From Cyanidioschyzon merolae (taxonomy: Eukaryota), in NCBI GenBank assembly GCA_000091205.1, contig AP006496.2: a stretch of DNA of 64,000 bases. The stretch is one strand, 5' to 3'. The notes beneath the pieces were generated by a model. The model had not been told where the DNA came from, searched no databases, and saw only the letters and a program-made list of their open reading frames with translations. Shown here piece after piece: positions 995-54,827 of this stretch; position 1 is the first letter of the stretch; every line of letters starts with the position of its first letter. The translations under genes were made by a program, and so were the position numbers.

Positions 995-1704
995 TCGTCA
1001 TTGCGACATGGATCTTTTGAGCTGTACGCTGAGCACGAAAGCGTTTCGTAATGTTCGCGCGCGCCTTGCTTGCTTTCGACTCGACCGGCTCGAGGAACGC
1101 GATGCTCCGCGAACATACACAGACCGGCGCACGGCTGCGTCTCGCAGTAACATGTTCGCGACCAGATGACCTGTCCCTGATAGCCCGACGCTCTGTATTC
1201 GTGAAATCGATAGTTGAGCACGAGCAGTGCCTCCTGGCCGACGGCAGAGAGCCCCGAAACTCCGCCAGGGAAAGCGCCGGCACTCGCGAGCGTCTCGACG
1301 GAGCTGGCGAGTCGACTCGCTGGATTCTGCGCTATGCTCCGCAGAGGCCCAGACTCGAGACCATCGAAGATCGTTTTCCGCGGCTTGTTCTCTGACGCTG
1401 CAGTGAACCGCCGCTGAGGCATACTGTGGCGAAAGTCTTCAGCGAGCCTGCTTTCTACGGCGACTCACACTTGCAGTCCTTGACTCGTGCAACAACTGGT
1501 GCGTATCAAAGTGCCAAAATGATGAGTCAAAGAAAAAGACCTTCAAACACCAGGAAACGCCTTATTGGTAAACAGAAAAGTCTTTTACCAAGAAAGGAAC
1601 GAGTGTCGAGTGGATGGACGGATTGCAGCCCCACATTGTTGCCCGAGCATGCGCCGGTGCTGCAGGCGACAGCGCCGTACCTCGGGTCGCCTCTCAGGTT
1701 CTTA

Positions 1705-2100
1705 GAGTCTTTCATTTGAATCGTGTTTCAATCCTCAAGTAAGTGTAATCAAGTGATTTTTCAGGGTTTGTAGCTGGAGCATTCAGAGTGTGTTCTTTTT
1801 AAAAAATAAACTTACGGGAATGGAAGTGAAGGATCCTGGAGGCCGTCATCGCCGGATGCCAGAGAAAAAGGACGAAAATTTCGATCTTCTCGCCGACCAT
1901 CGAGGGAGAAGTGCAAGTGACGAAGAAGAAGAAGAACAGGGTAGGTAGATGACAAAAGATGTTTGTCCGACAGGATGATGACGAGACTGTAGTCGAATAG
2001 AGGCCACGAGTTCTGGCAATCCTTGCGATGGTGAGTTCAACCAGAGGCAATGCACGCATGGAGATCGTGAACTTTGACTTTAACGCCACCATCAATACCA
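1705..2100 (+). mobile_element. 5' fragment (copy 4) of the multi-copy repeat family also found at 21.6-24.4 kb, 44.6-47.4 kb and 51.3-54.1 kb. It is truncated after about 400 bp
   Basis: It shares the conserved 5' box tcaatcgtgtttca..cctcaagtaagt..a.tcaagtgattttc, then ATGGAAGTGAAGGATCC (MEVKDPGG, compare MEVEDPGG in copy 1). Similarity is lost after about 2100. Confidence 0.5.
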
Positions 2101-2833
2101 GACGATGTGTGGTGCTGAAGACGACTGCTGACGATATGAGGCCATCTATGTTTGTTGGGAAACCTCTCAGATGCGAAGTGTGCTAGGAGAAACTGAAAAC
2201 GGCTGCAGGCGGCCAGTCAAAAAAGGCCGGGAGGCGTCTGAGAGGGAGTATATTTCTTTACACTCTATGGATCTACAGTTTTTTCGTTTCATTGAACACA
2301 AGGGTGCTTTTCCTTTTGATGGACAGAACGCTCAACATGACCAGGGACGCTGTATTGCGGTATGGATTCGGGTAACCGGTAATGCATCTGTCGGTCCATA
2401 CCCTTGGTTCAAGTTCTGGAAGCCACTCTTCGTACTTCCCCACGACGATACTGGTCATTCCGTACGTTCCATCGTGCGACGTTTCTCCTATGAGTTTTCG
2501 CAATAGTGCTTTTACAGTGCTGTTGCCAGCGCTGAATGTCCTCTGGCTGCCGGGGTGCTCGGATCACCGTCCAGGGTGTTGTCGGTCGCACCGCGATGCC
2601 ACTTGGGGAGCCACTCGGCATGCGCTTGGCGCGCTTCTGTTGTCCCTGCTTCTAAGGTCTTCGGTGACCTCGGCATCCAACGAGCGCCTTGACTACACCA
2701 CGCTCTAGTCGTCGGGATGTAACCTGAAGCAGCATCGTACGCGGAAGAGGTGAGGTTTACGTCCAGTGAACCGCGAGCATTTGCATATGCCCAGGGTGGG
2801 TGCCTCGACGCATCGACCCAGCGCCATCGACAC

Positions 2834-2857: not shown

Positions 2858-3490
2858 GCACACGAGGATCTAAAGCGTTAAACGAATGCCGCAGTTCTTC
2901 GCTGAAGAAGCACCACATACGCGACGTATTAAGCATGAGGCTCCCATCGACACGGGTGCTTTTGCGTTACGGTGGCACCCAGCCCGGCATAGCGTTAGCG
3001 CAACGACACTGTCGCTCCGTTTCGAAAATACGTATGGTTTGTGGCAGTGGGTGGGCCCTGAAGATATGGTGCGGGAACCGCGGACGCTCTCCCGAAGGTC
3101 GATGACAACTGCGCAGTCGGGGATCCGCGGACTCGGGCAAACCTTCCGTCCATGAAGAGAAACAGGCGCAACGCCCAATCGGGCCGCATCGTGTCTCAAC
3201 CGCAAGCTTCTGGTGCACTTCAGCTGCGCCCAGTTCGCATTTGCTGGGACTCGATAGGTGTTGGTATTCGACGGGTCGTACTGAGCAACGACATCGAGTC
3301 GCCATACAGGGCACTGCCAGCGTTTTCGTAGTTGCTGTCCCATTCAGGAGTTTATACGCGGCAAAACGCGCGCTTCGGACTCGGCACCGGCAAGTCGTCG
3401 CTACCACCGGGCGTCTTGCCGAGAAACTGGGCTTGGCATCGATTTCGCTGCAGTGAGTGGCCTTTATAAAAGTATTCTTACATAGTACTG

Positions 3491-8901: not shown

Positions 8902-9437
8902 TTGTGCAATCGGTTGCGTCGCTCAGTCTACGCCCCTTATGCGTAGCTGAAGAACGGGTAGCGCAGACAGCCCAGCGTCTGTACGTAGCCGGATACTGGA
9001 GCGTGCACGAGGCAGCGGCAACGACCTCGCCGGGTCACCGGTTGAGGTTACGGCCTTGCGTGGACCGCTGACTCAGTGCAGGCAACTCTAAGAGAGCCGT
9101 GAATAGAGTTCCCCGAAGCAAACTATAGTCCAAGGCAAGTCAACGTCAATGCGAACACAAGAGCGGGACACTTGACGCGCGTTCACGGGATAACGCTTTC
9201 AGCACAGAGAGCAGTGCAAGTTCTGTCGCGGAAGCGCCGTGCGTCGAGTAGCTCGCACCAGCCGCACTGGAAACGTCGCTCGAGTGTACTGTATCCAGTC
9301 GCTGCCGCTTCTTCGAGTTGTCCTATTCAGATGCGCCTTTTCCAAATGTCTAAAGTCTGGGATGCGTAGGTACCAATGGCTGTGAGCGCTTCAGCACACG
9401 GGACAAGTGCAGTGCCATTCACTGATCTCAGACCGGA

Positions 9438-9838
9438 GAAGAATATCTTATCATCCAGGATCGAGCATTGAGTGCACTTTTGATTACACAAGGAGCAATC
9501 GTGTAGCATTCACGGATTACATACCGCAATGCGTCTCCTTGCATATATCGTTCATCGGTAGAAGAATATCTTATCATCCAGGATCGATCATTGAGTGCAC
9601 TTTTGATTACACAAGGAGCAATCGTGTAGCATTCACGGATCACATATCGCAATGCGTCTCCTTGCATACATCGTTCATCGGTAGAAGAATATCTTATGAT
9701 CCAGGATCGATCATTGAGTGCACTTTTGATTACACAAGGAGCAATCGTGTAGCATTCACGGATCACATACCGCAATGCGTCTCCTTGCATACATCGTTCA
9801 TCGGTAGAAGAATATCTTATCATCCAGGATCGAGCATT
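9438..9838. repeat. minisatellite of about 3.25 tandem copies of a 123-bp unit, in the intergenic region upstream of the aminotransferase gene
   Basis: The unit gaagaatatcttatcatccaggatcga(t/g)cattgagtgcacttttgattacacaaggagcaatcgtgtagcattcacggat.acata.cgcaatgcgtctccttgcata.atcgttcatcggta recurs at 9438, 9561, 9684 and 9807. It produces the repetitive pseudo-ORFs 9407..9961(+) and 9428..9823(-). Confidence 0.9.
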
Positions 9839-20962: not shown

Positions 20963-21599
20963 TCTTCCTGCCGGCCAAAGTGTGTGTGTGCGCTAGTGCC
21001 TGCAACGCTCCTGGTACGCCTCGGGGGAGTATAACGGAGAATTGCTCGCGGGCTGGTGACCCGGGCGACGCGATCTCCGGGAGGGGCTTGAGGCGGCGCG
21101 CGCCATTGCGCAGCGTCACGCTTTCGTCTGTTGACTGGTGTTAACGAGAAACGTCCAATAATTGTATTTAAATGTATTAAATGATACAAAAATGAAATAG
21201 AAGCGTCAGCCTCATCTGGATGTGCTCGGAGCACGGAGACGGCTGCGACGATTTTTACGGTTTGACAGATCGCTCACATTGACCATGGATCGCAGAATGC
21301 GGAGTTGATGGATATTGGCTTTCAGGAAAGCGTCCATCATGCCGCTGCACCCTATCTTCAGTTTCCATTATTCACGCTTCCTTTCGGCTGTACTGCTCGT
21401 CTAGTACGTTCTATCGTGCGCTGAGTTCCTGCTTTGAGCAGCCGCCGTAGCGCCTGTACCACTTGAGCGAATGCATCACGGAGACAGAACGGCTTTTTCC
21501 GTACCACTGAGGGCGTTGGCTCGAGGCGAGCATCATCCGGCACGGGGTCGGTGTATATCATCATTGTGGAAGCCTGCAAACTGCGCAGACAGACCAAGA

Positions 21600-24361
21600 G
21601 CTTGCGGTAATGGGAAGCGATATGCAAGGAGACCATCGCGACCAGAGCGACGCCCAGACGGTGCCTACCCGCTCCTCGTCCCAGCGTAGACTGCATTGGG
21701 GACGAGTCGCTCAGATCTCACTAAAGCACGTGCAAATGGGGCGAGCATCAAGCACGAGCGTGGGAGACTCGTCTCGCGTGCGGGACCTTCCGCACAGGCG
21801 GCAACCTTTCGACAATACGGGAAGATTTTCCCTCTTTTCATGTTTATCGTTGAGGGGGAATGAAATCGTTACATCTTTGCTATTTAATGATTAGTCTCTT
21901 TTCTTTTTTCCGTATTGTGCGGTCGATACGCGCATCTCCATATCTGGCAGGCATGAGACACGACGTGCATCTCGCTGTTGAGGGGAAACGAGATCCTGAC
22001 CTTTAGTGTGCAGCTCTAACCTACAAGTTGTATTATGGTTGAAGTCATAGCAGAGTATGCTCTCTCGATTCAATCGTGTTTCAGCCCTCAAGCAAGTACA
22101 TTCAAGTGATTTTCCACGATTTATAGCGGACGCATTCGAAATAGGATCTTTTTCAAAAATAAAAAAGAAAAGTAATCGAAATGGAAGTAGAGGATCCCGG
22201 AGGCGCGGTGTCACCTGCTGGTGGAAAAAAACGAAAAACAGAGTCAAACGTAGAGGAACAAGACATGACGAAGAAGCAGAAGAAGAAGGCCCGACGCCAA
22301 AGGCTGCGAGAAAGATGACAATACTACGAGATTGTTGTAAAAGCCTGTCTTCTTGGATAAATCAAGGATCTGTACAAGCAAAAGTTACGAGAGGCCATCA
22401 GAAACTGTGTAGATTCGTACTCCATGAGTGGTATAAAGGCTTCGTCAGGGCTAATGCATTTGGTGAAGGAGCTGTATCGGGACCTGATGGAAATCAAAAG
22501 ACGCGTGGTTCCGGAAGGTTTATTCAACAAGACCTTTTTTCGCCACCTGATTGTTGGCACAGGGGCAGCGTCGAGAAGAGATGAGGGAATGCACGCCCTC
22601 TACGAAAAATTCGCCGAATTCCGCTTCGACGGTACTCGATACATGGGTGATGCGGATATTTACGGATGCGGGGCAATGAAGTACCTCACGAATCTGAAGA
22701 ACAATATGCTCAGTATCCTCGAACGTTTCATGTTACGTTCTATCTTTGCGCTGTACCCGGGCCTGTCTCGCAATGGGATATGGGGCATCATCGAAAGTAT
22801 CACGAACAATCGCCAGCATGAAGATAGGATCCAATCCGTCGACGACAAGACATCACGCAGGAGCAGGAATGAAGCTTCTGTATTGCGTACGGCTATACAG
22901 GAGCATCGTGCGGTACGGGGACTGGCGAATCCTGCAGAAAAGGTAACGGAAATGAAAAAAGATGTTATCACCTCATCCTAAGCTATTTCGTGCTTCTGGA
23001 CCGAGAACTCGAACGCAAGGCAGAGATGGAGCTGGGCGTGAGAAAAAATGAAGAGTCGTTGGAACGGAAGGCTTTCCTGATGTGGAAGCGCTTCAACGTG
23101 GTTCCGTTGTGCAACATCAAGTCACATTTTGTGACTATCGACTCCGGAGTCGTTCATGGCATCGTAAGGGAGATCAGTCCGGAGTTCGATGTAAGCAAGA
23201 TAGAGTTCACCGATGAAACGCGGGAGACGTACTGGAAGAATATCTTCGATTTCAAACGTCTCAAAGTGAGCAAGCAAAAGCAGTTCACTGGGATGATCGA
23301 AACCGATGGAGAAGCCATCTGCGTACATCATCGGCGCTTGAAAGCAGATCGTCCAGTTCCGTCCTCGGCTTCGCCCTCGGCGAAGCATGAAGAAAAGAAG
23401 GTGGCGGATCCTGCGACACAGAAAGTGCAGGACAACGACTTTGTCGTTGGCGCGGCCCCCGGGAACTTGAATATCACAACCATTGAAGCACCCAAGTGTG
23501 CGGAACATGGTGACGACGGCAACTGACGTCAGAAGGACATGCGTCTTGTAAAGTTCTCAAGGGCGAGGTATCGCCTAGAATCGTGAATAATGAATGCAAG
23601 GAAGAAATTTGGGACTTGGAATGCAGGAGTGAAGGAGCGCCTGGAAGCTATGAGCGCGGTGACGAACCGCGGAGCGGGCTTTGACTATTTTCGGGAATTC
23701 ATGGAAGTTCGCATTGCTCATTGGGATGCGCTGTGAGGGGAGTACACCAAGTCACGATTAGCTCGTAAGTGTATGAGACTGTACTGTGGGAAGCAGCTTC
23801 GCGTCGCGAACTTCTTCAATGAATTGAGCGCCCTCAAAGAGGATGAAAGGCGGAGGCTTGTAACAGCATACGGAGCAGGACGCTAGGCTTCCAAAAAAGG
23901 AGCATACCTGTTCCATCGACAAGAGTGTACAAGGAGTGCACACATCGTTTTCTCACGATACGGGTAGATGAGTTCTGAGCGTCGTATACACACTTCGAGC
24001 TGGGGTGTATACTCCAGAGGGTCGAGATGGAAAAGTGCCAGCGGAGCTCTAAGGATGTAAAAAAGTACGGAGCGCTGAAAGAACAGGAAATGGAACGGAG
24101 GGCACAGGTTCGAGAACTCCTTGCACTGGTGGGTACAACCAACGGGGGCAAGAAACGCATGGAGTTCGAGAACGGTGACTTGTTCTCGCCGCAATCAATA
24201 GAACGAGATATGCGGTCCCGGAGAAGAGACCCGACGCGCTAACACGATCTAAAATTCGCAGGGCAGCCGTGCAGTGTCGAGGTGTACAACGAGAAACTGA
24301 AACCAGTAGCAGAGGGCCGGTCCAAAAAGACTGGAGGCGTCTGCACGTCAGTTGGAGATGT
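21600..24361 (+). mobile_element. copy 1 of the 2.3-2.8 kb repeat family (putative Fanzor/TnpB-like element), with a decayed ORF
   Basis: The 5' flank 21600-22056, the 80-bp 5' box, the ORF and the 3' terminus ...ctggaggcgtctgcacgtcagttgga are all shared with the minus-strand copies at 44569-47400 and 51339-54090. Confidence 0.6.
22181..24242 (+). pseudogene. decayed ORF of repeat copy 1, with in-frame TGA and TAA stops at positions that are sense in copy 2, plus frameshifts. The RuvC-I-like box is mutated (AAPGN)
   Basis: MEVEDPGGAVSPAGGKKRKTE... RER* ...LLG*IKD... is one frame carrying two stops. Later it gives [19 protein letters not shown] and TRVYKECTHRFLTIRVDEF*ASYTHFELGC. Confidence 0.55.
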
Positions 24362-25675
24362 ATTGTCTATGGCGGTCACTCGCCACTAATGTGCACCGGT
24401 TATGCAGCGTTTGATGATTGAACGGCATGCCTGTGCTGGTGGTGGTGGTGCTGCGATGCGCAGGACGCACAAACTCCGGCCTGCGTCGTTGCATCGCAAG
24501 GAGAAAAGATACGTCAGGGCAGGAGCAGGCGCCTACGAGTATCCCGCCTGTCATGTCTGCGCGGTGCAGGTTCATTTGGTGGCTGTGCATTGGGTGCAGC
24601 GCGATGCACGCTTCTACAATGACTTGGAACTGTGTAACGCAACGATTGGCGGTAGCGGGTTGCATCGCTGTTACTTCATGGTGCAGGTGCAGCCGCTGTA
24701 TGTATCCCGCGAACTGAGGTACCACTCTCATCGATTCATGCACAAGCGCTGCGGCCATGCACTGATGCTGCGTTATGGGCGTCGGTGAATCGGCGAACAG
24801 GCTTCTCGCTCCACGGACTAACCTTCAAAAGCTTCGATCAAAAAGCCTCTGGGAGCGGGTTTTCTCGTTGCGGACCTTAAAAGGCGATACCGTACAATTC
24901 TGTTGGCATCGTATTCGGAAATCGCAGCAGAGGAGCGCCAAGCATTCCGTGGCTGGTTTGCGAGATTCGCTGTCTGCTAGGCGAGGACTATGGACCTGAG
25001 CCACTCCCGACGCAGTGCCAGGCGAGCATGCATGCCACCCCTGGCACATCGCTATGATGCTCATATGTTCAAGGTCCAAGTATGCCCAGCCACGGCCATC
25101 GCTCCAATGCTGACTTGCTGGTGTCAACAGGACAACACCCCGTCTCCGCAAGGCTATTTCTTTATGAACCGGCCATGTCCGGAAACGTAAGCATAGCATG
25201 ACAGAATCCTGTATGATATAGGATAGAGACGATGGTTTTTAATTCTCTAATCAGCAGGAGAGAGAGCGTTGCCAGCGAGCACGCTGCGCGAACAACAGGA
25301 ACGGTTAGTGGTCGCTGCTACCTCTTGTCACGTAGATTATCACTCGATCACCCAGATGCACTTGTGAGCGTAGCGCCCATCATCCCTGAATTCCGAATCC
25401 TAGTGAAATGTTCCCCATGAGTGATAAAACTTGCCTGTGTAGACGATCCCCAAAGCGCCGGTGGTGCTGTAGCCGTCCACCTGCTGCGCCTCCGGCTTGC
25501 GCAGTCCTAACGCAGATGACGCGTACGCTGTCGTGCAGCGCCACAGTGTTACGCCTACCTGTTGCCGTTCGGGTTAGGTAGGTTTTGTTTTCGGGCGCTC
25601 CGTCTTGGTGTAAGCGGTAGTCAGAGGTGCTCGGCGCAGGAGCAGCGACAACCGAGTGTTGCGCGTGCGTTTCCC

Positions 25676-30933: not shown

Positions 30934-32129
30934 CACCCATATCAGACGAAACGGGAAGGCCTACAAACAGATGACTCGAGCGTCCGTTCAAAAGTTCGGG
31001 TCTATTGCCAATGCCATCCAACATGGGCCTCCGCGTGCCTTTGAGCTGCCTGCTGTTTTCGCTCTCTCTTACCTTCGGATTTACATGCGCCTGTCGCTCA
31101 TGAACCTCTCCCAGCTGCGATGTCAGCCGTCGACAGATGTCGACGGGAGCGTTCAAGTCCCGACTGCGCCGTTCCCGGCAGTTGTCGACGCATTTCGTGC
31201 ACGAGCGGAAGTTGCAATGCACAACCCGTCTGCCGTTTTTCATCCTCTCTGTACTCGGACGCAGACTGCCCGTCACCACGATGACATTTGATCGCACTCA
31301 GGTGTTTTCGCAGGTTAAGAACACGTGCCTCTCTGAACGCCGCTCTGTGGCGCGTGAACGCTTGCCTCAGTGCTCGGTAGACGCCCTTGGCGGGTGCAGG
31401 AGGCTCCACTCGATGCACTCTTCCATATCCCCGCCCAGTGCCGTACATCTGAATCACGGGCTTGTTCTGGGCGGTGCCTTTGGTATCTACGTTGTTCGCT
31501 GTATGTGCACGCGCACGGTGCTCGCTCCAATAAAGGACTTGCGGGACGCCTTCTTGCCCATATGAAACAAGTGCCAGAGGGAAGTCCGGCCAGACGAAGA
31601 ATTCGCGGCGGTGCGATTCGCCCACGCGCGCGTCTTGCACAGCGCTGACGCGTTCTCCAGTGGAGGCGCTCGCTGCGATAACTAGGGTCCGAGTCCAGTA
31701 CACGGTGCTGTGTAGGCACAGGAGCCGCGATGCTCTGTGAGCGTACTCCCTGAGAGGCAACATGCTGCTGCTGAATGCCGCTGGGTCGATGGCCACGAAC
31801 CAAAGAGCATCTGCCTTCGGAACCAGGTCAATGATCTCCGGCGACAAGCACAGTGAGCTTTAGGCATCGTGCTGTGAGCAAGATGTCGAAAGCAGACTTT
31901 GAGCGTTTCTCGGCGTCCATAAAGCAGCGCAGGCCTCTGCGCCAACGTGTTGCCTTGAAACAGAAATGCAGGATAGCTGACGCATATGTGATTTGAGCAT
32001 TCTGCACATAAGGAAAGGAGAAGTGTGCAGGCGTGAATGTAGGTATTGGATCATGGTATTGGTTTTGCTACAAACCGCTGTCCCATGATGTCGCGAGTCG
32101 CCTAGAGTCCGGTGAGCCACCGAATACCA
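30934..32129. repeat. left arm of a large inverted repeat. It is 1196 bp and about 98-99% identical to the reverse complement of 35270..36464
   Basis: Read directly. Identity begins at cacccatatcagacgaaacggg (the reverse complement of 36443-36464) and ends at ...ggtgagccaccgaatacca (the reverse complement of 35270-35290). All ORFs in one arm reappear on the opposite strand of the other arm. Confidence 0.95.
31098..31847 (-). CDS. hypothetical 249-codon ORF carried by the left inverted-repeat arm. Its function is unknown and the track ORF begins at a TTG
   Basis: It has mixed amino-acid composition and is intact in both arms with only 3-4 aa differences (for example FSSSMLPLREY versus FNSSMSPVREY). 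In both arms a same-frame ORF lies immediately upstream, separated by one stop codon. The true start is unresolved. Confidence 0.35.
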   Translation of the reverse strand: MSPEIIDLVPKADALWFVAIDPAAFSSSMLPLREYAHRASRLLCLHSTVYWTRTLVIAASASTGERVSAVQDARVGESHRREFFVWPDFPLALVSYGQEGVPQVLYWSEHRARAHTANNVDTKGTAQNKPVIQMYGTGRGYGRVHRVEPPAPAKGVYRALRQAFTRHRAAFREARVLNLRKHLSAIKCHRGDGQSASEYREDEKRQTGCALQLPLVHEMRRQLPGTAQSGLERSRRHLSTADIAAGRGS

Positions 32130-35269: not shown

Positions 35270-36464
35270 TGGTATTCGGTGGCTCACCGGACTCTAGGCG
35301 ACTCGCGACATCATGGGACAGCGGTTTGTAGCAAAACCAATACCATGATCCAATACCTACATTCACGCCTGCACACTTCTCCTTTCCTTATGTGCAGAAT
35401 GCTCAAATCACATATGCGTCAGCTATCCTGCATTTCTGTTTCAAGGCAACACGTTGGCGCAGAGGCCTGCGCTGCTTTATGGACGCCGAGAAACGCTCAA
35501 AGTCTGCTTTCGACATCTTGCTCACAGCACGATGCCTAAAGCTCACTGTGCTTGTCACCTGAGATCATTGACCTGGTTCCGAAGGCAGATGCTCTTTGGT
35601 TCGTGGCCATCGACCCAGCGGCATTCAACAGCAGCATGTCGCCTGTCAGGGAGTACGCTCACAGAGCATCGCGGCTCCTGTGCCTACACAGCACCGTGTA
35701 CTGGACTCGGACCCTAGTTATCGCAGCGAGCGCCTCCACTGGAGAACGCGTCAGCGCTGTGCAAGACGCGCGCGTGGGCGAATCGCACCGCCGCGAATTC
35801 TTCGTCTGGCCGGACTTCCCTCTGGCACTTGTTTCATATGGGCAAGAAGGCGTCCCGCAAGTCCTTTATTGGAGCGAGCACCGTGCGCGTGCACATACAG
35901 CGAACAACGTAGATACCAAAGGCACCGCCCAGAACAAGCCCGTGATTCAGATGTACGGCACTGGGCGGGGATATGGAAGAGTGCATCGAGTGGAGCCTCC
36001 TGCACCCGCCAAGGGCGTCTACCGAGCACTGAGGCAAGCGTTCACGCGCCACAGAGCGGCGTTCAGAGAGGCACGTGTTCTTAACCTGCGAAAACACCTG
36101 AGTGCGATCAAATGTCATCGTGGTGACGGGCAGTCTGCGTCCGAGTACAGAGAGGATGAAAAACGGCAGACGGGTTGTGCATTGCAACTTCCGCTCGTGC
36201 ACGAAATGCGTCGACAACTGCCGGGAACGGCGCAGTCGGGACTTGAACGCTCCCGTCGACATCTGTCGACGGCTGACATCGCAGCTGGGAGAGGTTCATG
36301 AGCGACAGGCGCATGTAAATCCGAAGGTAAGAGAGAGCGAAAACAGCAGGCAGCTCAAAGGCACGCGGAGGCCCATGTTGGAAGGCATTGGCAATAGACC
36401 CGAACTTTTGAACGGACGCTCGAGTCATCTGTTTGTAGGCCTTCCCGTTTCGTCTGATATGGGT
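35270..36464. repeat. right arm of the large inverted repeat (1195 bp)
   Basis: See the left arm at 30934..32129. The spacer between the arms runs 32130..35269 (3140 bp). Confidence 0.95.
35552..36301 (+). CDS. second copy of the 249-codon hypothetical ORF, in the right inverted-repeat arm
   Basis: It is 98-99% identical to 31098..31847(-). Confidence 0.35.
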   Translation: MSPEIIDLVPKADALWFVAIDPAAFNSSMSPVREYAHRASRLLCLHSTVYWTRTLVIAASASTGERVSAVQDARVGESHRREFFVWPDFPLALVSYGQEGVPQVLYWSEHRARAHTANNVDTKGTAQNKPVIQMYGTGRGYGRVHRVEPPAPAKGVYRALRQAFTRHRAAFREARVLNLRKHLSAIKCHRGDGQSASEYREDEKRQTGCALQLPLVHEMRRQLPGTAQSGLERSRRHLSTADIAAGRGS

Positions 36465-36727
36465 GTAGGTATGCAACGCATCCGCGTGCTTGCGAACGTG
36501 CGTCGATTATGTACATAACTGGACACTACTGGCCACTTGCTCTGATCGTCGCCGCGGGGAGCTGGCGCACGGCCTCGGGGCCTGCCCTCGGCACCGGCCC
36601 CGCAGCCGATGCCGGTACGCGCCGTGGGCCGTGCCAATCCAGAATCGTATCCACGACACTAGTGCTTACGATTCGGTGTGAAGCACAGTTTTCGCAAGCC
36701 ACAGTTGTTCACTTTTGCGCTATCAAC

Positions 36728-43211: not shown

Positions 43212-44498
43212 TCATTGCCGCTTTAGCGAGTGGCGCTTTCCAGCGAACCTTTCAGTTGGAGCAAAGTTCTGCCTGTAAGCGTATAACGCTCCCACCGCCG
43301 CCCACGACCAGAGCAGACAGAAAAGCAGGAGACGCCATCGACGCGGGCGTTGTTGCTGATGCGGTTGTGGCCCCGAAGGCGATTCTGCGGCTTGGTTCTT
43401 TTTCGATGCTTTCGGAGGCTGCCCGATACTGAAGGACGGTTCGTCCATTAAACGGGTATTTTCATCGATTTTTTCGCGTGGAATCGTCATCATCGGCTCC
43501 TGGCTCCATGCTGAAGTAGGCGAGAGGCGCTGTCCAAAACGACTCAAAGCCCTCCATTCCTCTTCGCTCACCAGACCATGGAGTTCGCTATCAAGTGAAG
43601 CGTCGCCTTCGCCATTTGAATTGTTTGCTGGGGCGATCCTCAGTTGCAACCAGGAAGTGTAGAGACGTTCGATGCGCAGGTCGCCTACATTTTTAACATA
43701 TTGAGGCCACGGCGTCACGGGCACACCTGGAGTCAGAGAGAGACTGATTGGCGGCTCTGGTATGGCATCGTCTGGTGCGCTCCTGCAGGGCTCCTCAGGG
43801 CGCTCTCGAACGGCGGTGTTGGATTCAAGTTTCAGGAGCTGCATGGTGCTCCGGCTCCAGCACGCGTCCGCCGCGGTGACCGTCATCGCTTCGGCCTCGG
43901 GAAGGTCCGCCCATTGATAAGCAAGATCGTCGCCCCACAGTACCTCTGAGCTGTCAATAGTCATTTCGCCACGCCAGATATCGGTTGCGGACCACTGCAA
44001 GACGCAGACACTCTCGCAGCACTTTACCACTACGAAGCGTCCAAAAGCTGTATGAACCTTCAAAGCGAAGCGAACACGTACGATCGTATCGTCGAAACTG
44101 TATACAGGTACTTGCGGAGCTGCGTGGGGCTCAGTGTTATCTCCGAGCACGGCAACCAGCCACCGCACGGGTACAGTTCGCTCAAGGCGGCAACTCTGGC
44201 GATCCTGGTAACCATAGCAGTAGGAAAGCCGCCCATGGTGCGGGTAGCCCCAGAGCGTCTCAGCTGTGAGCGCACCCTCTGAGGCGTCAGCTGCTCGCAC
44301 ACAAGTCTGCGGCTGCTCGTCTGGTGAAGCACGCTCACTCCGCTGGAGTAGCACGCTTACGTCCCCACCTTCGCAGCTGGCGACTGGCCGTGGTACCAGA
44401 AATCGCAACCGAACTTGCATGATGCAGCCACTAGCTGCACTAGTTGAGCCGTTTTTCAAGACTCGCTGCTCAAGTCGAAAGTGACACCGGCCACACAC
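43212..44498 (-). CDS. hypothetical protein (428 aa) with a single C-terminal transmembrane helix (tail-anchor-like). Family not recognised
   Basis: The long ORF has balanced composition. A C-terminal RWRLLLFCLLWSWAAVGALYAY hydrophobic helix is followed by a short basic tail. The internal region is Trp/Tyr-rich and beta-like. Confidence 0.4.
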   Translation of the reverse strand: MCGRCHFRLEQRVLKNGSTSAASGCIMQVRLRFLVPRPVASCEGGDVSVLLQRSERASPDEQPQTCVRAADASEGALTAETLWGYPHHGRLSYCYGYQDRQSCRLERTVPVRWLVAVLGDNTEPHAAPQVPVYSFDDTIVRVRFALKVHTAFGRFVVVKCCESVCVLQWSATDIWRGEMTIDSSEVLWGDDLAYQWADLPEAEAMTVTAADACWSRSTMQLLKLESNTAVRERPEEPCRSAPDDAIPEPPISLSLTPGVPVTPWPQYVKNVGDLRIERLYTSWLQLRIAPANNSNGEGDASLDSELHGLVSEEEWRALSRFGQRLSPTSAWSQEPMMTIPREKIDENTRLMDEPSFSIGQPPKASKKNQAAESPSGPQPHQQQRPRRWRLLLFCLLWSWAAVGALYAYRQNFAPTERFAGKRHSLKRQ

Positions 44499-44568
44499 AC
44501 CAACAACGCCGTTCTACGTCGACCGACGTCAGTGTACAGTAGTGGCGAGAAACTCGCCCTGGCCAAGA

Positions 44569-47400
44569 AGTCTGCAACTGACGTGCAGACGCCTCCCTGT
44601 CTTTCTGGGCCGGCCACCGACTACATCTTACATATTCTTCTCATATAGTTCCACTTTGAGAGGTTGTCCAACAAAGTTCGTTCTTGGCGTCTCTGGAGGT
44701 CTCTTCTCCAGCACCGCACATCTCCATATATTTAATGGCGGCATTAAAATCTCGGTTCACGACTTCCATCCGTTTCTTGCCATTGATTGTACTCACTAGT
44801 TTAAGTAGCCCTCACACTTTTGCCCTCCTTTCCATTTGCTCTTCCGTCAGCGGTCCGTACTTTGCTATTTCCTCAGGACTCCGCTGCCACTTTTCCATCT
44901 CCACTCTCTGAAGTGTACTACCCAGGTCATGGTGTGTATACGACGTTCGAAACTCATCTACAGGTATCATAACAAAATGCCGTGCAAACTCCTTGTACGC
45001 CCTCGTCGTTGGAGCTGGCGTGGTCCCATTTTTCGACGCCGAACGCCCTGCCCCATAAGCCGCAACCAGCCTTTGACTTTCATCCTCCTTCAAGTCGCTC
45101 AAATGATTGGAAAAGTTGGCAAATGCCCGCTGCTTCCCACAATACAAATTCATACACAAAACGGGTCCACTGGAGCTTGGTATATTCATTCCACAGCGCA
45201 TCCCAATGAGCAATGCGAACTTCCATGAATTTCCGAAAAGCTTGAAAGTCCGCTCTGCGGCTCGTCACCTCGCCCATAGCTTCCAGGTGATCCATCATTC
45301 CTGCATTCCATGCAGCAATTTTCTTCCTCGCATTCATTATACCGACTTCTCGATAGAATCTTGCTCTTGAGAACCTCAACAGACGCATGGCTTTCTGACG
45401 TAATTTACCATCAGCACCATCTTCCACACGCTTGGGTACCGCAATGGTGATGACATTCGTATTCCCAGGGTCCGCGTCAACGACAGAGTCGCTCTCATGC
45501 ACTTTCTGTTCCGAAAGACCCGCCTCCTTCTCATCTTCTTGCTTCGCCACGGGCGAAGCCGAGGTCGGAAATGGCCGATCTGTCTTCAAACGCCGATAGT
45601 GTACACACATGGCTACTCCATCAGTTTCGCTCATCCCAGTGAATACATTTTGCTTGCTCACTTTGAGACGTTTGAAATCAAAGATATTCTTCCAGCACGT
45701 CTCCCGGTTCTCGCCGGTGAACTCTGTCATCCTTACATTGAACTCCGGACAGGTTTCTCTCATTATGCTGTACAGGACTCTGGAGTCGATTGGCATAAAA
45801 TGCGACTTGATCTCGCACCTCGGAACGACGTTGAAGCACTTCCCCATCCGGGCAGCTATCCGTTCCAACAACGCTTCATTTTCCCCACTCAGCTGCCTTT
45901 CGGCCTTGCGTTCGAGTTCCCGGTCCAAAAACACAAAATAGCGCAGGAAGAACGGATAACATTTTTCTTATCTTTTTTCGTAGCTGATACCTTTTCCGCT
46001 GTATTCGCCAGCCCCAAGACTGCACGGCGCTCTTGAACAGCGGCACAGATCACAGAAGCTTCATTCTTTCTCCTGCGTAATGTCCTCTTGTCGAAGAATT
46101 CGATCTCCCGTTCATGGAAGCGATCGTTCTTGATGCCATTGATGATGGCCCATATCCCTTTGCGAGATAGGCCCGGGCAGAGTGCAATCACGGCGCTTAT
46201 CATGAAACGTTCGAGATTCAAAGTCAAATGTTCGTTCAGGTTCTTGACGCACTTGATCGCCCCCTATGCGCAAATATCCGTGTTATACTTCTAGCGAGTA
46301 CCGTTGAGGCGGTAGTTGGGGTATTTTTCGTGGAGGGCATGCGCTCGATCGTTTCTCCTCGACGTTTCCCCAGTGCCGAACATCAAGTGACGAATAAAGG
46401 ACTTGTTGAAAAACTCTCCCAGAACGCCGACTATTTTGACGTCCTTCATATCGCGATACATCTTCCTCACCAAATGCATCAGTGCTAAAGAAGCGATGTG
46501 AACACTCATGGGGTAAGACTCGACACGGTTTCTCATCGCTTCTCGCAACTTTTGCTGGCAGGGATCCTTGATATGGCCGAGAAGACAGGATTTCACCACC
46601 ATAACGTCGTATGATCGTCTTTCTTGCAACCTGTGACGTAGGGCCTCCTGCCATGGCTTCTCCGCCTTGTCTCGTTCCTCTTTGCTTGGCTCTGTTTTTC
46701 GTTTCTTTCCGCCAGCCAGCGTTACTGGCGCTTCAGGATCCTCCATTTCCATTTCCATAACTTATCTTCTCTTTATTTTTGAAGACGAACGCACATGGAA
46801 GGGTTTTGCTGTAAACCGCGAAAAATCAATTGAATTAACTTACTTGAGGGTTTAAACACGACTGAATTGAAAGACTATAGTTTGCTCTGACTTTTACGCA
46901 TATACAACTGGGCCGTTAGAACAACAAGTCAACGAGTGATCATGATAGCGTCGCTCTTCTCAACGGTAACATGCGCGTCGTGCTCGTGACTGCCAGATCA
47001 CGAGGTGCGCTGACCGACCGCACTATATACCACGATAAACAGAGACCAGCTACTAACTAGCACCGAGATAACAATTTCTTTGCCCTCTACGATAAACGCT
47101 GAACGGAGAAAAGGTTTCCATCTATCGAAAGTTTACCTTCAAGGCAGAGGGTCTTGGGATCAGGGTGTCTGCCGGGCTTGCGCTCCGTGCAACTCTGCAG
47201 TGGCGAGTGGCGTGACGCGACCTGAGCTGCTCGTCCCCAACGTAGTTTATTCTTGTAGAACGGGCAGATAGGCTGCGTCTGGGCGTCACACTGGTCACGC
47301 TGGACTCCTTGTAAATCGCTTCCCGCTGCCGCAGGCAGTACGCCTGTCTGCGCAACTTGCTGGTTCCCAGAGTGCTTATGAATCGCGACCCCGTGTCGAG
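44569..47400 (-). mobile_element. copy 2 of the repeat family (putative Fanzor/TnpB-like element). It is the most intact copy and retains the D-A-D-P-G-N box
   Basis: The 3' terminus (on + coordinates 44569-44800) tctgcaactgacgtgcagacgcctccctgtctttct...ttccactttgagaggttgtccaacaaa matches 51339-51470 and the reverse complement of 24250-24361. The 5' box lies at 46780-46880. The 5' flank to about 47400 matches 53600-54090. Confidence 0.6.
44812..46758 (-). pseudogene. ORF of repeat copy 2, split into four frame-shifted pieces (46291..46758, 45889..46227, 45080..45934, 44812..45213). It is a putative TnpB/Fanzor-like RuvC nuclease with a degenerate zinc finger
   Basis: The N-terminal basic stretch GGKKRKTEPSKEERDK looks like an [25 protein letters not shown] is RuvC-I-like (compare TnpB vGIDlGiknlatlsdG). 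RLLRFSRARFYREVGIMNARKKIAAWNAGMMDHLEAM resembles the TnpB helical bundle (l.r..rkk.ks.nrkKar.kiaklh.kianqRkD). TTRAYKEFARHFVMIPVDEFRTSYTHHDLG aligns with TnpB l.YKAe..G..V..VdP.YTSQ.Cs.CG, but both Cys pairs are lost. Confidence 0.45.
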
Positions 47401-47843
47401 TGCACCACCCCTAGAGCCCACGCTCTCAATGGTATGGCAAAAACGTCCTGTCGCCGCGATGCATCGGCTCCAGTAAGATAGGCGGTATGCTGGGTACTTA
47501 CGATAGACACGCGGCTCACGATAGAACGTACAAAGCGACCACTACATCTGAGTACAGGTGATGGAACTTGAAGATAAGCCCATCATGATGGACGCTTTCT
47601 CAATAGCCATTATCCATACATCCCAAAATCTGGAATGTATGGACCATGTAAACGTTTTGGTTTCGAAAACAAATCGGACACCAGAGCGACGCACGGCATC
47701 GAAGCGCTCACGTCAATTAAATAGCGAGCGCGAGGCGGTATCGGCCCTGGAACTTGTGGTAGCGGCAGCGCCAGCGTCAGAGGAGTTTCGTGGGATAGCT
47801 GCTTTGTGCTGCTTGGCCATGGCAATCCACAACTAACTCAGAT

Positions 47844-50924: not shown

Positions 50925-51338
50925 AGGTTTTGTCGGAGGTGCTTGCTCGTGTCCAGCTTTTTACTGCGAAGCGTGTGCGGAGTATCGGGCTCGAGCGACT
51001 GCCTGAAGGGGGGAGGGGGGTGACGAAGCCGAACGGGGAAAGCGTATAACGTTTGATGCAGTTTTATAGGAAGGACGGTTTAAAGCATGTTTTGCTTCGC
51101 GACGCTTTTACAATACGACTTGATTGCGCGCTTCGAATAGCCTGCCGCGTACTGGAAAGATCGCTGTGGTACGCGTAAATCCATTACAAACTTTTGAGCT
51201 GGTGCTGCCTGAGTATTCAGATTATGCTGGGGAAAGATCTGTCAATGGTCTTGCCTCATCGCTTTTTATCCAACTTCGGTGCGACCTTCGCAGCGGTGTA
51301 CAGTGGTAGCGGTGAACGCGTCCTAGACATGACGTCTC

Positions 51339-54090
51339 CAACTGACGTGCAGACGCCTCCCCGTCTTTCTCGACCGGCCACCTACTACTGACTTCAACTT
51401 TTTTTCATATAGTTCCACTTTGAGAGGTTGTCCAACAAAATTCTAGCCTGTCAACTGTGGAGGTCTTTTCTCCATCACCGCACATCTCCGTATAATGATT
51501 GCGGCGTTAAAGTCTCGGTTCACGAAATCCATACGTTTCTTGCCATCATTCGTTGTACTTACTAATGCAAGTAGTCCACGAACTTTCGCCATCTTTTTCA
51601 TTTGCTCCTCCGTCAGCGGTCCGTACTTTTGTATATCCTCGGGGCTCCGCTGGCGCTATTCCATCTCCACAATCTGAAGTGCGCACCCCAGTTCATGGTG
51701 TGTATGGGACGTTCGGAAGTCATCTACGGGTATTGTAACAAAACGCCTTGCGCACTCCTTGTACGTTCTTGTCGTTGGAGCTGGCGTAGTCCCTTTTTGG
51801 GTCTTCAAGCGCCCCTGTCCGTACGCTACTACGAGCCTCTGACTTTCATCCTCCTTCAAGGCGCTCAACTCATTGAAAAAATTCGCGAATGCACGCTGCT
51901 TCCCACAGTACAAGTTCATTCGCAGACGAGCCCACCGGGGCTTGGTATACTCCTCCCACAGCGCATCCCAATGGACAACACGAACTTCCATGAATTTCCG
52001 GAAAGCTTCAAAGTCCGCTCCACGGATCGTCACCTCGCTCAAAGCTTCCATTTGATCCTTCATTCCTGAATTCCAATTCCCGATTTTCTTCCTTGCATTC
52101 ATGATTCCCGATTCTCGATTGTATCTCGCTCTCGAGAACCTCAAATGACGCAGGTTTTACCTACGTAAGTTTCATTCAGTGCCATCTTCCCGACGCTTGG
52201 GTACAGCGATGGTTATGATATTCGTGTTCCAGGGACTAAGGCCGAAGACAAAGTTGTTTTCGTTGGGATTATACGTCCCATGGCCCGTCTTCTTGTTTTC
52301 GTGCTTCGGCAAGTGAGATAATGAAGACGGGATAGGACGACCTGCCTTCATCCGCTGATAGTGTACACATATGTATACTCCATCGTTATCGATTGTCCCA
52401 GTGAATACCTTTTTTTGCCCGGTTTGGGACGCTTGGAATCGAAGATATTCTGCCAGTAGGTGTCCCGGTCTTCGCTGATGATCTCTTTGTTGGTTACATC
52501 GAGCTCTGGACAGATCTCCTTCATGAAGTTGTAAAGGACGATGGAGTAGATATTCACAAAATGTGACTTGAACTCGCATAACCGAACACCAATGAAGCGC
52601 AACCGTAGAAGCGATTGAATATCATCTCTCCAACTCTTCATTTTTTCCATACTCAGCTCCATTTCGGCCATGCGTCCGAAATTGGTCCAAAAACATGAAG
52701 TAGGGGAGAATAAGGGATAACATCTCTCTTCGTTTTTTCTCATATCTGACAATTCTCCTCTTGGGTTGACAAGCCCCAAGACCGAAGGATGCTTTTGAAT
52801 AGTCGCGCGGATAACAGAAGCCCTATTTTTTCTACAGCATGATGTACCCTTGTCGATGAATTCAATCTCCTGTTCATGCTGGCGATCGTTTTTCATACCA
52901 TCGATGATTGCGCATATCCCTTCACGAAACAGGCCCGGATACAGCGCAAGGACGGCGCGTACCATGAAACAATCGAGGTATACGATCTTATTTTTCCTCA
53001 CATTCGTGAGGCACCTCATTGCCCTGTATTCGTATGTATCTGCGCCACCCTTGTATTTGGCACCGTAAAAGCGCGAGTTTGCGTAATTTTTCGGAGAGCA
53101 TGGACTGTCCCATTTCTCCACGAAGTTTCCCAGGTGCCAAACATCAACTGGCTGACAAAGGTCGTGTTGAAAATTTCTCCCTCTCCAAATGCACCAGTCC
53201 CAAAAGACGCGTTACAAACATAGCTTGAGCACGAATCGCCATCGTTTCTGAAGGCCTCTCGCAACTTTTCCTTGTACGGATCCTTACCATGCCCAAGAAG
53301 ACACGATTTCATCACCATTTCATCGCTCTGTCGTCTTTCTTGCAGCATTTGACGTAGGGCCTCCCTTTTTTGCTTCTTTGCGTTATGCTATTCCTCTACA
53401 CTCGGCACAGTCCTTTGTTCTCTTCCGGCGGCCGGCAATACCGGTCATCCAAAAACCTTCTACCTCCAGTTCCATAAGTTTTCTATTTTATAAAAAACAT
53501 TATGGACGCTTCTAGTTTAAACGGCGGCAAAGCAGTAAAATACTTTAACTTGAATATTGAAACACGATTGAAGTAATACCGACACTTTGCTACCATTTGA
53601 TCGCAAACACAACTGGCCCCGATACAGCCGCAGGTCAAAAAGTAGCCATTATCGCATTTCTCTTCACCGGCGAGACAGGTTGCGTGTTGTGACGGCCACA
53701 TATCGTGGTTCGCGTACGGGCCACACAATACAAAAAAAGAACGGAGTGTGGCCGATTACTAGCAACGAGGTAACGGTTCCTTTCCACATCTGTTGCAGAC
53801 CTTGAAAAGAGGAACCTTTTGCTCATGGTCTAACGATTACCTTAGAGGTGGAGGGTCCCACAAACCGGAAGACGCTACCTGCTTTTGCTCCGCGTGACTC
53901 TTAGTGGTGGAGAATGTGACGCACCTGAGTATCTCGTCCGAATCGCGTATGGTTCTGGGACTAGGAGCGGGTGTGCTGCATTTGGGCGTCACCTTGGTCG
54001 CGGTGGACTCCTAGTATACCGCTTCGCGCAACCGCAGGCTGATGGTCTGCATGTACAGCTTGGGGGCTCCCAGAAATATAAATAGCCCTG
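51339..54090 (-). mobile_element. copy 3 of the repeat family (putative Fanzor/TnpB-like element), decayed
   Basis: Its termini and ORF are homologous to copies 1 and 2. The 5' box is tgaaacacgattga at 53551-53564. The flank 53600-54090 matches 46900-47400. Confidence 0.6.
51656..53477 (-). pseudogene. decayed ORF of repeat copy 3 (pieces 53016..53348, 52348..53121, 52172..52579, 51656..52144). The RuvC-I-like box is mutated (LSPWNTN)
   Basis: The N-terminus MELEVEGFW...RRKRTKD...* carries a stop. [26 protein letters not shown] is the RuvC-I-like box. The C-terminal piece is TTRTYKECARRFVTIPVDDFRTSHTHHELGC. Confidence 0.5.
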
Positions 54091-54827
54091 ATTCCGTTTT
54101 GCGTGAACCAAGCCTCTTCTGACGCGCTCAGTGGTATACCAAGGCTGTTCTGTTTCCGTAGCGCATCCGCACCAGCGCCTTAATCGCGACGGTGGGTGCA
54201 TACGACTGGCACTCGACGCACGAGAGAACGTATGAAACGGCCAGTGCATTCGAGAACTGGTAAAAGCGATGGAACGTACAGATATTGCTCAGCATGATGG
54301 ACGCTTTCCCGAAAGGCAATATCGATCCGGCAAGCTGGGATACATGGTCAGTGGAAATGTTCTGTCGAACTAAAGAAAGCATATCGCGGGAGGGAATTCC
54401 TTAATGGCTCTGGTGTTCGAAGCATCGCCTTGGCAGTGCGTATGCGCTGATATCATCCTGCCGGAGGGAATTCCCTTATACTTCCGCTGGGCCGAGCCCT
54501 TGCGTTCAGCGGCGAAGTTTATCCACGATCGTCGTGATCTCCGAGCGGAACGTTGCGCAGCGCTTAGCGCGAAGTACTTGCGAGGTTACTGGTCGGAAAA
54601 CTGGGAGCTTTACCTAGTTTCTGAAAAGGACATAGACCACTTGTGCTAGTTCCACTCAAAGCTTGAAATTCTACAGGAGGCTTAGGTAAGAATCTGTGCA
54701 ATTGACGGACGATCACTCGTGCAGCTACACAACAGAGGTTTTTGACTGGATACGCACGCTTACGCGAACCTTCCTAGGTGGTGACGCACTCGGCAGCTTT
54801 GCACCGGAGAAAACCTAATCCAAGAAA

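Follow-up and report, generated by a model that had tools for sequence, protein, structure and literature searches.

Fanzor1 pseudogenes in Cyanidioschyzon merolae and a candidate structured right end beyond their stop codons

Copies of a Fanzor1 repeat in the window

In a 64,000 nt stretch of Cyanidioschyzon merolae DNA (contig AP006496.2; hereafter the window) we identified three mutually homologous copies of a ∼3.1 kb repeat, termed A, B and C, with pairwise identities of about 60-85 %. Alignment and translation placed copy A at 21263-24448 on the plus strand, copy B, which has the best-kept right end in the window, at 44485-47670 on the minus strand, and copy C, which has lost most of its terminal hairpin, at 51261-54363 on the minus strand. 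Three-frame translation revealed one long reading frame in each, disrupted by several frameshifts and by stops in every frame; none of the copies in the window keeps an intact open reading frame (ORF), and 3/3 are pseudogenes. The three loci are relics, as their ORFs are broken and their hairpins eroded. Within copy C, our analysis centred on the interval 51339-51480 (minus strand), which an initial annotation had grouped with 24250-24361 (plus strand) and 44569-44800 (minus strand) as conserved, non-coding ends of a repeat family. These three intervals are indeed homologous, were given in the right orientations and lie inside the ∼3.1 kb copies; the strings they were said to share are present and clear in copies B and C, whilst copy A is more diverged in its first half.

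A fourth copy, D (1703-2240, plus strand), is a relic of the same element with an internal deletion and without ends, its two parts (1703-1841 and 2031-2240) corresponding to element positions 792-940 and 2875-3085, respectively. Both termini are absent from copy D, where homology stops directly after GGGAGGCGTCTG. With filters off, no solo right-end ('ghost') modules were found in the window beyond copies A, B and C. Orthologous empty sites were likewise not recovered, none of the fetched loci being ≥ 90 % identical to the window.

Identity of the family and its nuclease

A contig overlapping the window (L081) carries a gene for serine hydroxymethyltransferase (SHMT) identical to XP_005537435.1 of C. 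merolae 10D, with neighbouring genes matching BAM81399-81402, including BAM81400 and BAM81402. From this alga Bao & Jurka (2013, Repbase; PMC3627910) described the Fanzor1 family CMe-1A, comprising ∼150 copies of ∼3 kb that are ∼80 % identical to the consensus and lack terminal inverted repeats (TIRs); target-site duplications (TSDs) were undetermined and the class was left open (PMC3627910). The repeat studied here fits that description in its host, its length of ∼3 kb, the ∼70-80 % identity of its copies, its lack of TIRs and of clear TSDs, its single Fanzor1 ORF and the mostly degraded state of its copies. We assign it to CMe-1A on the strength of host and published description. Where the two accounts differ is in the right-end hairpins and the omega RNA (ωRNA), neither of which is given in the 2013 description.

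The family consensus and its relatives contain the RuvC motifs DPGNTN, VDEFRTS and NRDFNAAINI (VNRDFNAAI in the window copies), which supply the catalytic triad in the order D, E (xDEFRTS), D (NRDxNAAxNI). In a 40-sequence alignment of relatives (A5), D484, E656 and the RD/N columns are invariant. A protein search returned 174 metagenome relatives, some of them near full length (P0016, 752 aa; P0001, 558 aa), and an exhaustive search returned 1232, many of 600-700 aa at 30-40 % identity. When the A5 profile was compared with the PDB, it matched the Fanzor1 structures of Parasitella parasitica (PpFz1; 9cf0, E-value 2.6e-19) and Guillardia theta (GtFz1; 9cer, E-value 1.8e-4), with alignments covering the DPG, DEFRT and NRD…N.R motifs as well as the C-terminal RP..F/L.R. 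Only the family profile gave this match: a single relative searched against the PDB with phmmer produced nothing significant, and Pfam had no significant hit either for the ORF pieces in the window or for relatives of full length. Judged by motifs and profile, the repeat thus encodes a TnpB-type RuvC nuclease of the Fanzor1 group, and the link to TnpB/Fanzor systems made in the initial annotation was well founded.

Between RuvC-II and RuvC-III, where a C4 zinc finger (CxxC…CxxC) is usual, the predicted protein (consensus TSYTHHELGCTLQRVEMEKCQ) presents H, H, C, C, with THHELGC…EKC at this place in the family. The protein also has a lineage-specific basic C-terminal extension (…VVGGRSKKTGRRLHVSWRRFV), and just upstream of the RuvC-I aspartate lies an acidic repeat of ∼20 aa in one to four tandem copies (L001, L006 and P0016; equivalent to window positions ∼23380-23450), whose varying copy number makes protein length differ between family copies. 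No second gene or transposase was found in the ∼900 nt of sequence upstream of the nuclease gene, and the copies examined have no ORF for Rep, Y1 or any other transposase, either inside the element or next to it.

The interval at 51339-51480 reads as the 3' end of the Fanzor1 ORF

Translation of copy C, set against relatives and the family consensus, shows the interval to be the final ∼50 codons of the ancestral Fanzor1 ORF (…NRDFNAAINIRRCAVLEKRPPELTRENFVGQPLKVELYEKKL..GGRSKKTGRRLHVSW). Across it, the frame of copy C runs …NRDFNAAIIIRRCAVMEKRPPQLTG-stop-NFVGQPLKVELYEKKLKSVVGGRSRKTGRRLHVSW, and followed on to the ancestral stop it runs …NRDFNAAIIIRRCAVMEKRPPQLTG-stop-NFVGQPLKVELYEKKLKSVVGGRSRKTGRRLHVSWRRHV-stop. 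The internal stop is a premature TAG at 51445-51443 and a mutation of copy C, given that the relatives P0001, P0002 and P0003 read through the interval to …GRRLHVSWR…. The consensus of 42 non-redundant copies ends …GRSKKTGRRLHVSWRRFV-stop, which identifies the ancestral stop codon in copy C as the TAG at 51323-51325 (minus strand). The pattern RP..L.R..F.G.PL is kept in a 40 %-identical relative and in the wider family. Across the interval, variability is higher at third codon positions than at the other two (ratios 1.3-1.7), an excess weaker than that in the catalytic core; this periodicity extends to about codon 432 and is lost only in the last 12 codons (ratio 0.95). On the evidence of translation and codon pattern, the interval is C-terminal coding sequence, not a separate non-coding element as first described, and its non-coding appearance is due solely to the pseudogene state of the window copies.

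Greater conservation than in the ORF interior, as first claimed for the interval, is not borne out either. Mean pairwise identity among the window copies is 0.720 in the interval against 0.718 +/- 0.06 in the ORF interior, where 52 % of equal-width windows are at least as conserved, and in the 42 non-redundant copies of the family the values are 0.79 for the last 50 codons and 0.83 for the interior. The similarity between copies here very probably reflects common descent together with purifying selection on the nuclease in source lineages, as for the rest of the ORF. In the sense-strand consensus fold of the last ∼55 codons (E -1.35, z -0.6), pairing was no better than in column-shuffled alignments. 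The antisense consensus fold of these codons gave z -4.4, which traces to the palindrome CTGGAG-N7-CTCCAG in codons VLEKRPPE (window 51447-51470, minus strand; homologous in all copies), where no compensatory changes were seen.

Folding did bring out one candidate stem at the 3' edge of the interval. This stem, P1 (51329-51359, minus strand), consists of GAGGCGTCT, a 13 nt loop GCACGTCAGTTGG and AGACGTCAT, with many G·U pairs on the sense strand; its inverted repeat falls in codons RRLHVSWRR, and the 3' arm reads AGACGTYTC across the family. Covariation in P1 is marginal (76.8 % of cells paired versus 75.8 % in shuffles), and the clear compensatory variant is a single one, GGTGTCT/AGACATC in L012. 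The string GGCGTCTGCACGTC, which is ≥ 90 % conserved and includes four consecutive synonymous sites, is the most conserved of the region; third-position conservation over the LHVSWR codons ranks only 9th of 307. Of the whole interval, it is just the final ∼25 nt (GGAGGCGTCTGCACGTCAGTTGGA) that may form part of a structured terminus, where they would supply the 5' arm and loop of the weakly supported P1. We also considered a short hairpin around the stop codon, AGACG-TTT-CGTCT, which was rejected as it exhibited no covariation.

A structured right end lies beyond the stop codon

Across 70 distinct copies, taken from 80 fetched loci and compared by BLAST and alignment, homology runs past the stop codon, continuing ∼65-110 nt beyond 51339 to about 51261-51285 in copy C; the interval therefore does not abut unique flanking DNA as had been supposed. 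The structured, sharply bounded terminus is instead formed by the next ∼70-110 nt downstream of the interval and comprises, in order, a stem-loop (P2), a CGCCACTACTGTACAC block and a terminal hairpin (P3). P2 has the form GGCG-loop-CGCC, its stem near-invariant and its loop the least conserved stretch of the region, whilst the single-stranded CGCCACTACTGTACAC block is itself near-invariant (column identity 0.82-0.95). P3 is ∼45-55 nt long, with a base that begins at CAC(C/G) of the CGCCACTACTGTACAC block and a 3' arm formed by what on first view passed for a G/T-rich 'tail' (GTTGTTGGTG or GTTTGTTTCCAG). Unique DNA starts at the foot of P3, give or take ∼15 nt.

P3 exists in at least two common versions, CGTCGTTCGA-CTT-TCGAACGGCG and AACGTTTTTC-TTTT-GAAAGRCGTT, along with several rarer ones, all palindromic, of which a 15 bp GC-rich stem in L055 is an example. 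The P3 sequence has been exchanged several times with its pairing kept. A covariance model (R1) built from one P3 version finds the module at 92 sites, three of them in the window. In copy B (44485-44563, minus strand; 59.3 bits, E-value 7e-23; fold z -0.92) it comprises GGCGAG-TTT-CTCGCC, ACTACTGTACAC, the terminal hairpin GACGTCGGTCGACGTAGAACGGCGTT and then GTTGGTGTG. In copy C (51261-51327, minus strand; 26.5 bits, E-value 5e-9; fold z +0.68) there remain a remnant of P2, CGCTACCACTGTACAC and a terminal hairpin cut to TGCGA-AGG-TCGCA, and in copy A the module occupies 24366-24448 on the plus strand (28.7 bits, E-value 6e-10; fold z -1.41). Well-preserved copies elsewhere fold as P1-P2-P3 with z values of -4.1, -3.1, -3.8 and -2.1, and from the window values of about +0.7 (C), -0.9 (B) and -1.4 (A) we conclude that the right-end module has decayed here.

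In the model alignment all 12 pairs of P3 have changed on both sides and 82 % of cells are paired, compared with 35-62 % in slid controls; 0 of 500 shuffles reached the observed values by any of five measures, a control that overstates significance, the alignment having been fitted to the model and many copies sharing descent. In the sense direction the terminal 46 nt have a folding energy of -15.0 kcal/mol, where dinucleotide shuffles give -11.4 and the antisense strand gives -10.0. The sense strand is the more stable in 44 of 52 copies, an asymmetry that may stem partly from the G/T-rich composition. Covariation was seen in the downstream terminal hairpin, and it is the stop-to-end module, not the flagged interval, that provides a candidate structured RNA at the right end, with conservation that stops at the element boundary. 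The idea of a guide RNA or transposon end at this locus accordingly survives in part: a candidate structured right end exists, on bases downstream of those proposed and eroded in the window.

In a 40 %-identical relative from a lower-GC organism, P0114 (L083, 3255-3400; intact ORF of 702 aa), CTACTGGAGTGTAGTCACCG occurs ∼50 nt after the stop codon and recalls the CCACTACTGTACACCG block, an observation from one sequence only.

Left end and flanking DNA

The left end of the element starts ATT(T/C)…ATGACAAAACG, and the right end finishes …GGCGTT(GTTGGTG) or …TTTCCAGGGG. We found no TIRs in the element. The left end contains palindromes of its own, CGTTTT-N8-AAAACG at the tip and GATGGA…GCTTTC-GG-GAAAGC…TCCATC ∼60 nt further in (copy A, 21250-21400; L010, 1564-1700; also L052 and L037), and its best-conserved block is ACGTTTACATTGACCATGGAT. 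Between left-end GTTTACATT and the reverse complement of right-end ACTGTACAC there is a 7/9 match that may be due to chance. Membership of Helitron or Helitron2 was considered and rejected on the element termini, between which this 7/9 inverted match was the only one.

Comparison of paired ends for TSDs or terminal direct repeats, which took in L003/L008, L010, L080 and window copies A and B, disclosed no consistent TSD or other pattern, only short, suggestive G/T-rich similarities. Between the left outside or left end and the right tail, for example, L010 has GCGTTGATTTTG versus GCGTTGTTGGTG, and copy A has GCTGCGAYG on either side. Such junction similarities could stem from a target duplication that has degenerated, from direct terminal repeats or from a preference for certain targets.

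Interpretation of the right end and alternative explanations

Taken together, the flagged interval very probably represents C-terminal coding sequence of dead, transposase-less Fanzor1 copies of the CMe-1A family, with the family terminus following the ancestral stop codon. The functional terminus is then the right-end module of ∼95-110 nt after the stop, possibly joined by the final ∼35 nt of coding sequence. Transcribed in active copies along with the Fanzor mRNA 3' end, or from it, this segment would act as the ωRNA scaffold and take its guide from the first ∼15 nt of the flank; the same hairpin DNA may in addition mark the right end of the transposon. More tentatively, we propose that the stop-to-end module, perhaps including P1, is both the ωRNA scaffold of CMe-1A and the hairpin end of an IS200/IS605-like transposon without TIRs or TSDs, a possibility to which we give somewhat less than even weight. 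Position, size and stem-loop layout resemble those of Fanzor1 ωRNA scaffolds and so make an ωRNA, a transposition end or both plausible at this place.

A number of observations weigh against this proposal. The exact right boundary is uncertain by the ∼15 nt given above; the covariation alignment was fitted to the model structure and many of its copies are related by descent; and P1 and P2 offer almost no informative covariation. RNAalifold, run on the plain MAFFT alignment of right ends, predicted no pairs and no consensus structure, since it places the two main hairpin types in different registers, and was replaced by the covariance-model alignment. Rfam searches matched no family. Among 13 independent left ends no conserved motif resembling a target-adjacent motif (TAM) was present on the 5' side, the initial annotation having suggested that the flanks be compared for such motifs; all that appeared was G (9) or C (4) at position -1 in 13/13. 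Lastly, over many independent insertions the bases directly following the hairpin core show a bias towards G and T (G 38 %, T 26 %, C 23 %, A 14 %) that a guide of purely random sequence should not have.

That 51339-51480 is itself a non-coding, extra-conserved ωRNA scaffold or transposon end reading straight into the flank, as originally envisaged, we consider improbable. Although the most conserved string of the region, GGCGTCTGCACGTC, sits at its 3' edge, stem P1 can form, and ωRNAs of TnpB and of some Fanzors are known to overlap the 3' end of the gene (PMC10432273), the interval is coding with codon periodicity, is conserved no better than the ORF interior and has a sense fold of z -0.6; P1 covaries only marginally, the third positions of LHVSWR rank but 9th of 307, and 65-110 nt of further element separate the interval from the flank. 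Equally little probability attaches to the view that the post-stop block and its hairpins are ordinary 3'-end signals of the Fanzor mRNA (cleavage/polyadenylation or termination). Such signals would be at home directly after a stop, where a near-invariant, TGTA-containing 16-mer is followed by a stable hairpin; yet that hairpin ends exactly where family homology ends, as in the terminus of a mobile element, and eukaryotic poly(A) signals do not typically take the form of a 45-55 nt hairpin that has undergone compensatory replacement repeatedly.

Rather unlikely, though better placed than these, is an explanation in which the right-end hairpins are purely DNA signals, without any guide role, for a trans-acting single-stranded DNA or hairpin transposase of the IS200/IS605, Helitron or Replitron kind. 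The element lacks TIRs and detectable TSDs (PMC3627910) and has hairpins at or near both ends, the terminal one exactly on its boundary; end hairpins are general in HUH/Rep transposons, Replitrons having one at the right end together with short direct terminal repeats (PMC10288648), and hairpins of top-strand DNA also tolerate G·T pairs. Against it, no ORF for Rep, Y1 or another transposase occurs in or next to the copies examined, Replitron proteins are undetected in red algae (PMC10288648), and the canonical Helitron termini, 5'-TC and CTRR-3', are absent. A DNA signal of this sort would moreover be compatible with an ωRNA, since transcription of the IS200/IS605 ωRNA runs through the right-end hairpin.

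Comparison with known systems

Fanzor1 ωRNAs have a total length of 75-150 nt and begin with a 7 bp stem-loop, between which and the guide lie one to three more (PMC11423790); an overlap with the 3' end of the gene is reported for TnpB ωRNAs and for some of Fanzor (PMC10432273). The CMe-1A module resembles the ωRNAs of SpuFz1, PpFz1 and GtFz1 (Saito et al., 2023; Xu et al., 2024; PMC10432273, PMC11423790) in that a first stem of ∼6 bp is followed by a further stem-loop, and conservation among CMe-1A copies stops at the flank. Unlike these three systems, CMe-1A has no TAM-like conserved flank, and whereas SpuFz1 has 30 nt inverted repeats, none flank the CMe-1A element.

Parallels with IS200/IS605 elements include the lack of TIRs and TSDs, a right-end hairpin with a nuclease gene that reaches up to it, and an RNA scaffold expected over the 3' end of the gene and the right end. 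CMe-1A differs in its eukaryotic host, in the lack of an identifiable Y1 TnpA and of a conserved tetra- or pentanucleotide 5' of the left end, and in its far greater length, of which ∼900 nt are non-coding sequence on the 5' side. The non-autonomous Helitron2/Replitron carriers of Fanzor1 in Chlamydomonas (CRe-1,2,3) share the Fanzor1 cargo, hairpins near the ends, a 3' hairpin near the terminus and the lack of TIRs (PMC3627910, PMC10288648). By contrast, CMe-1A has neither the 5'-TC nor the CTRR-3' terminus, no RepHel or Rep partner was identified for it, and convincing asymmetric terminal inverted repeats of the Helitron2 type are lacking, the 7/9 match being all that was found. Replitrons themselves were not detected in red algae (PMC10288648).

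These results bear on how the locus is annotated. The flagged bases belong in the annotation as the 3' portion of Fanzor1 pseudogenes and should not be labelled a regulatory or guide RNA, whilst the family-wide analysis defines the right end of CMe-1A, whose transposon ends and class were left open in 2013, and yields a concrete candidate of ∼100-130 nt for its ωRNA. The family itself is known; of its right-end structure and candidate ωRNA the searchable literature appears to offer no description. As C. merolae is easily transformed and some family copies are reported to be intact, the candidate is directly testable. If correct, the proposal would add a red-algal Fanzor1/ωRNA pair, support hairpin-end (single-strand type) mobility for a eukaryotic Fanzor1 element, and give the unclassified CMe-1A both a mechanism and the status of a natural RNA-guided nuclease system in a genetically tractable, intron-poor red alga.

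Other repeats in the window

Two further repeats were noted. An inverted repeat of 1196 nt (30934-32129 and 35270-36465) has arms that are 99 % identical and 3140 nt apart, each with a 249 aa ORF, and is unrelated to the Fanzor repeat. At 9437-9838 lies a tandem repeat with a 123 nt period, present in 3.3 copies that are 97 % identical.

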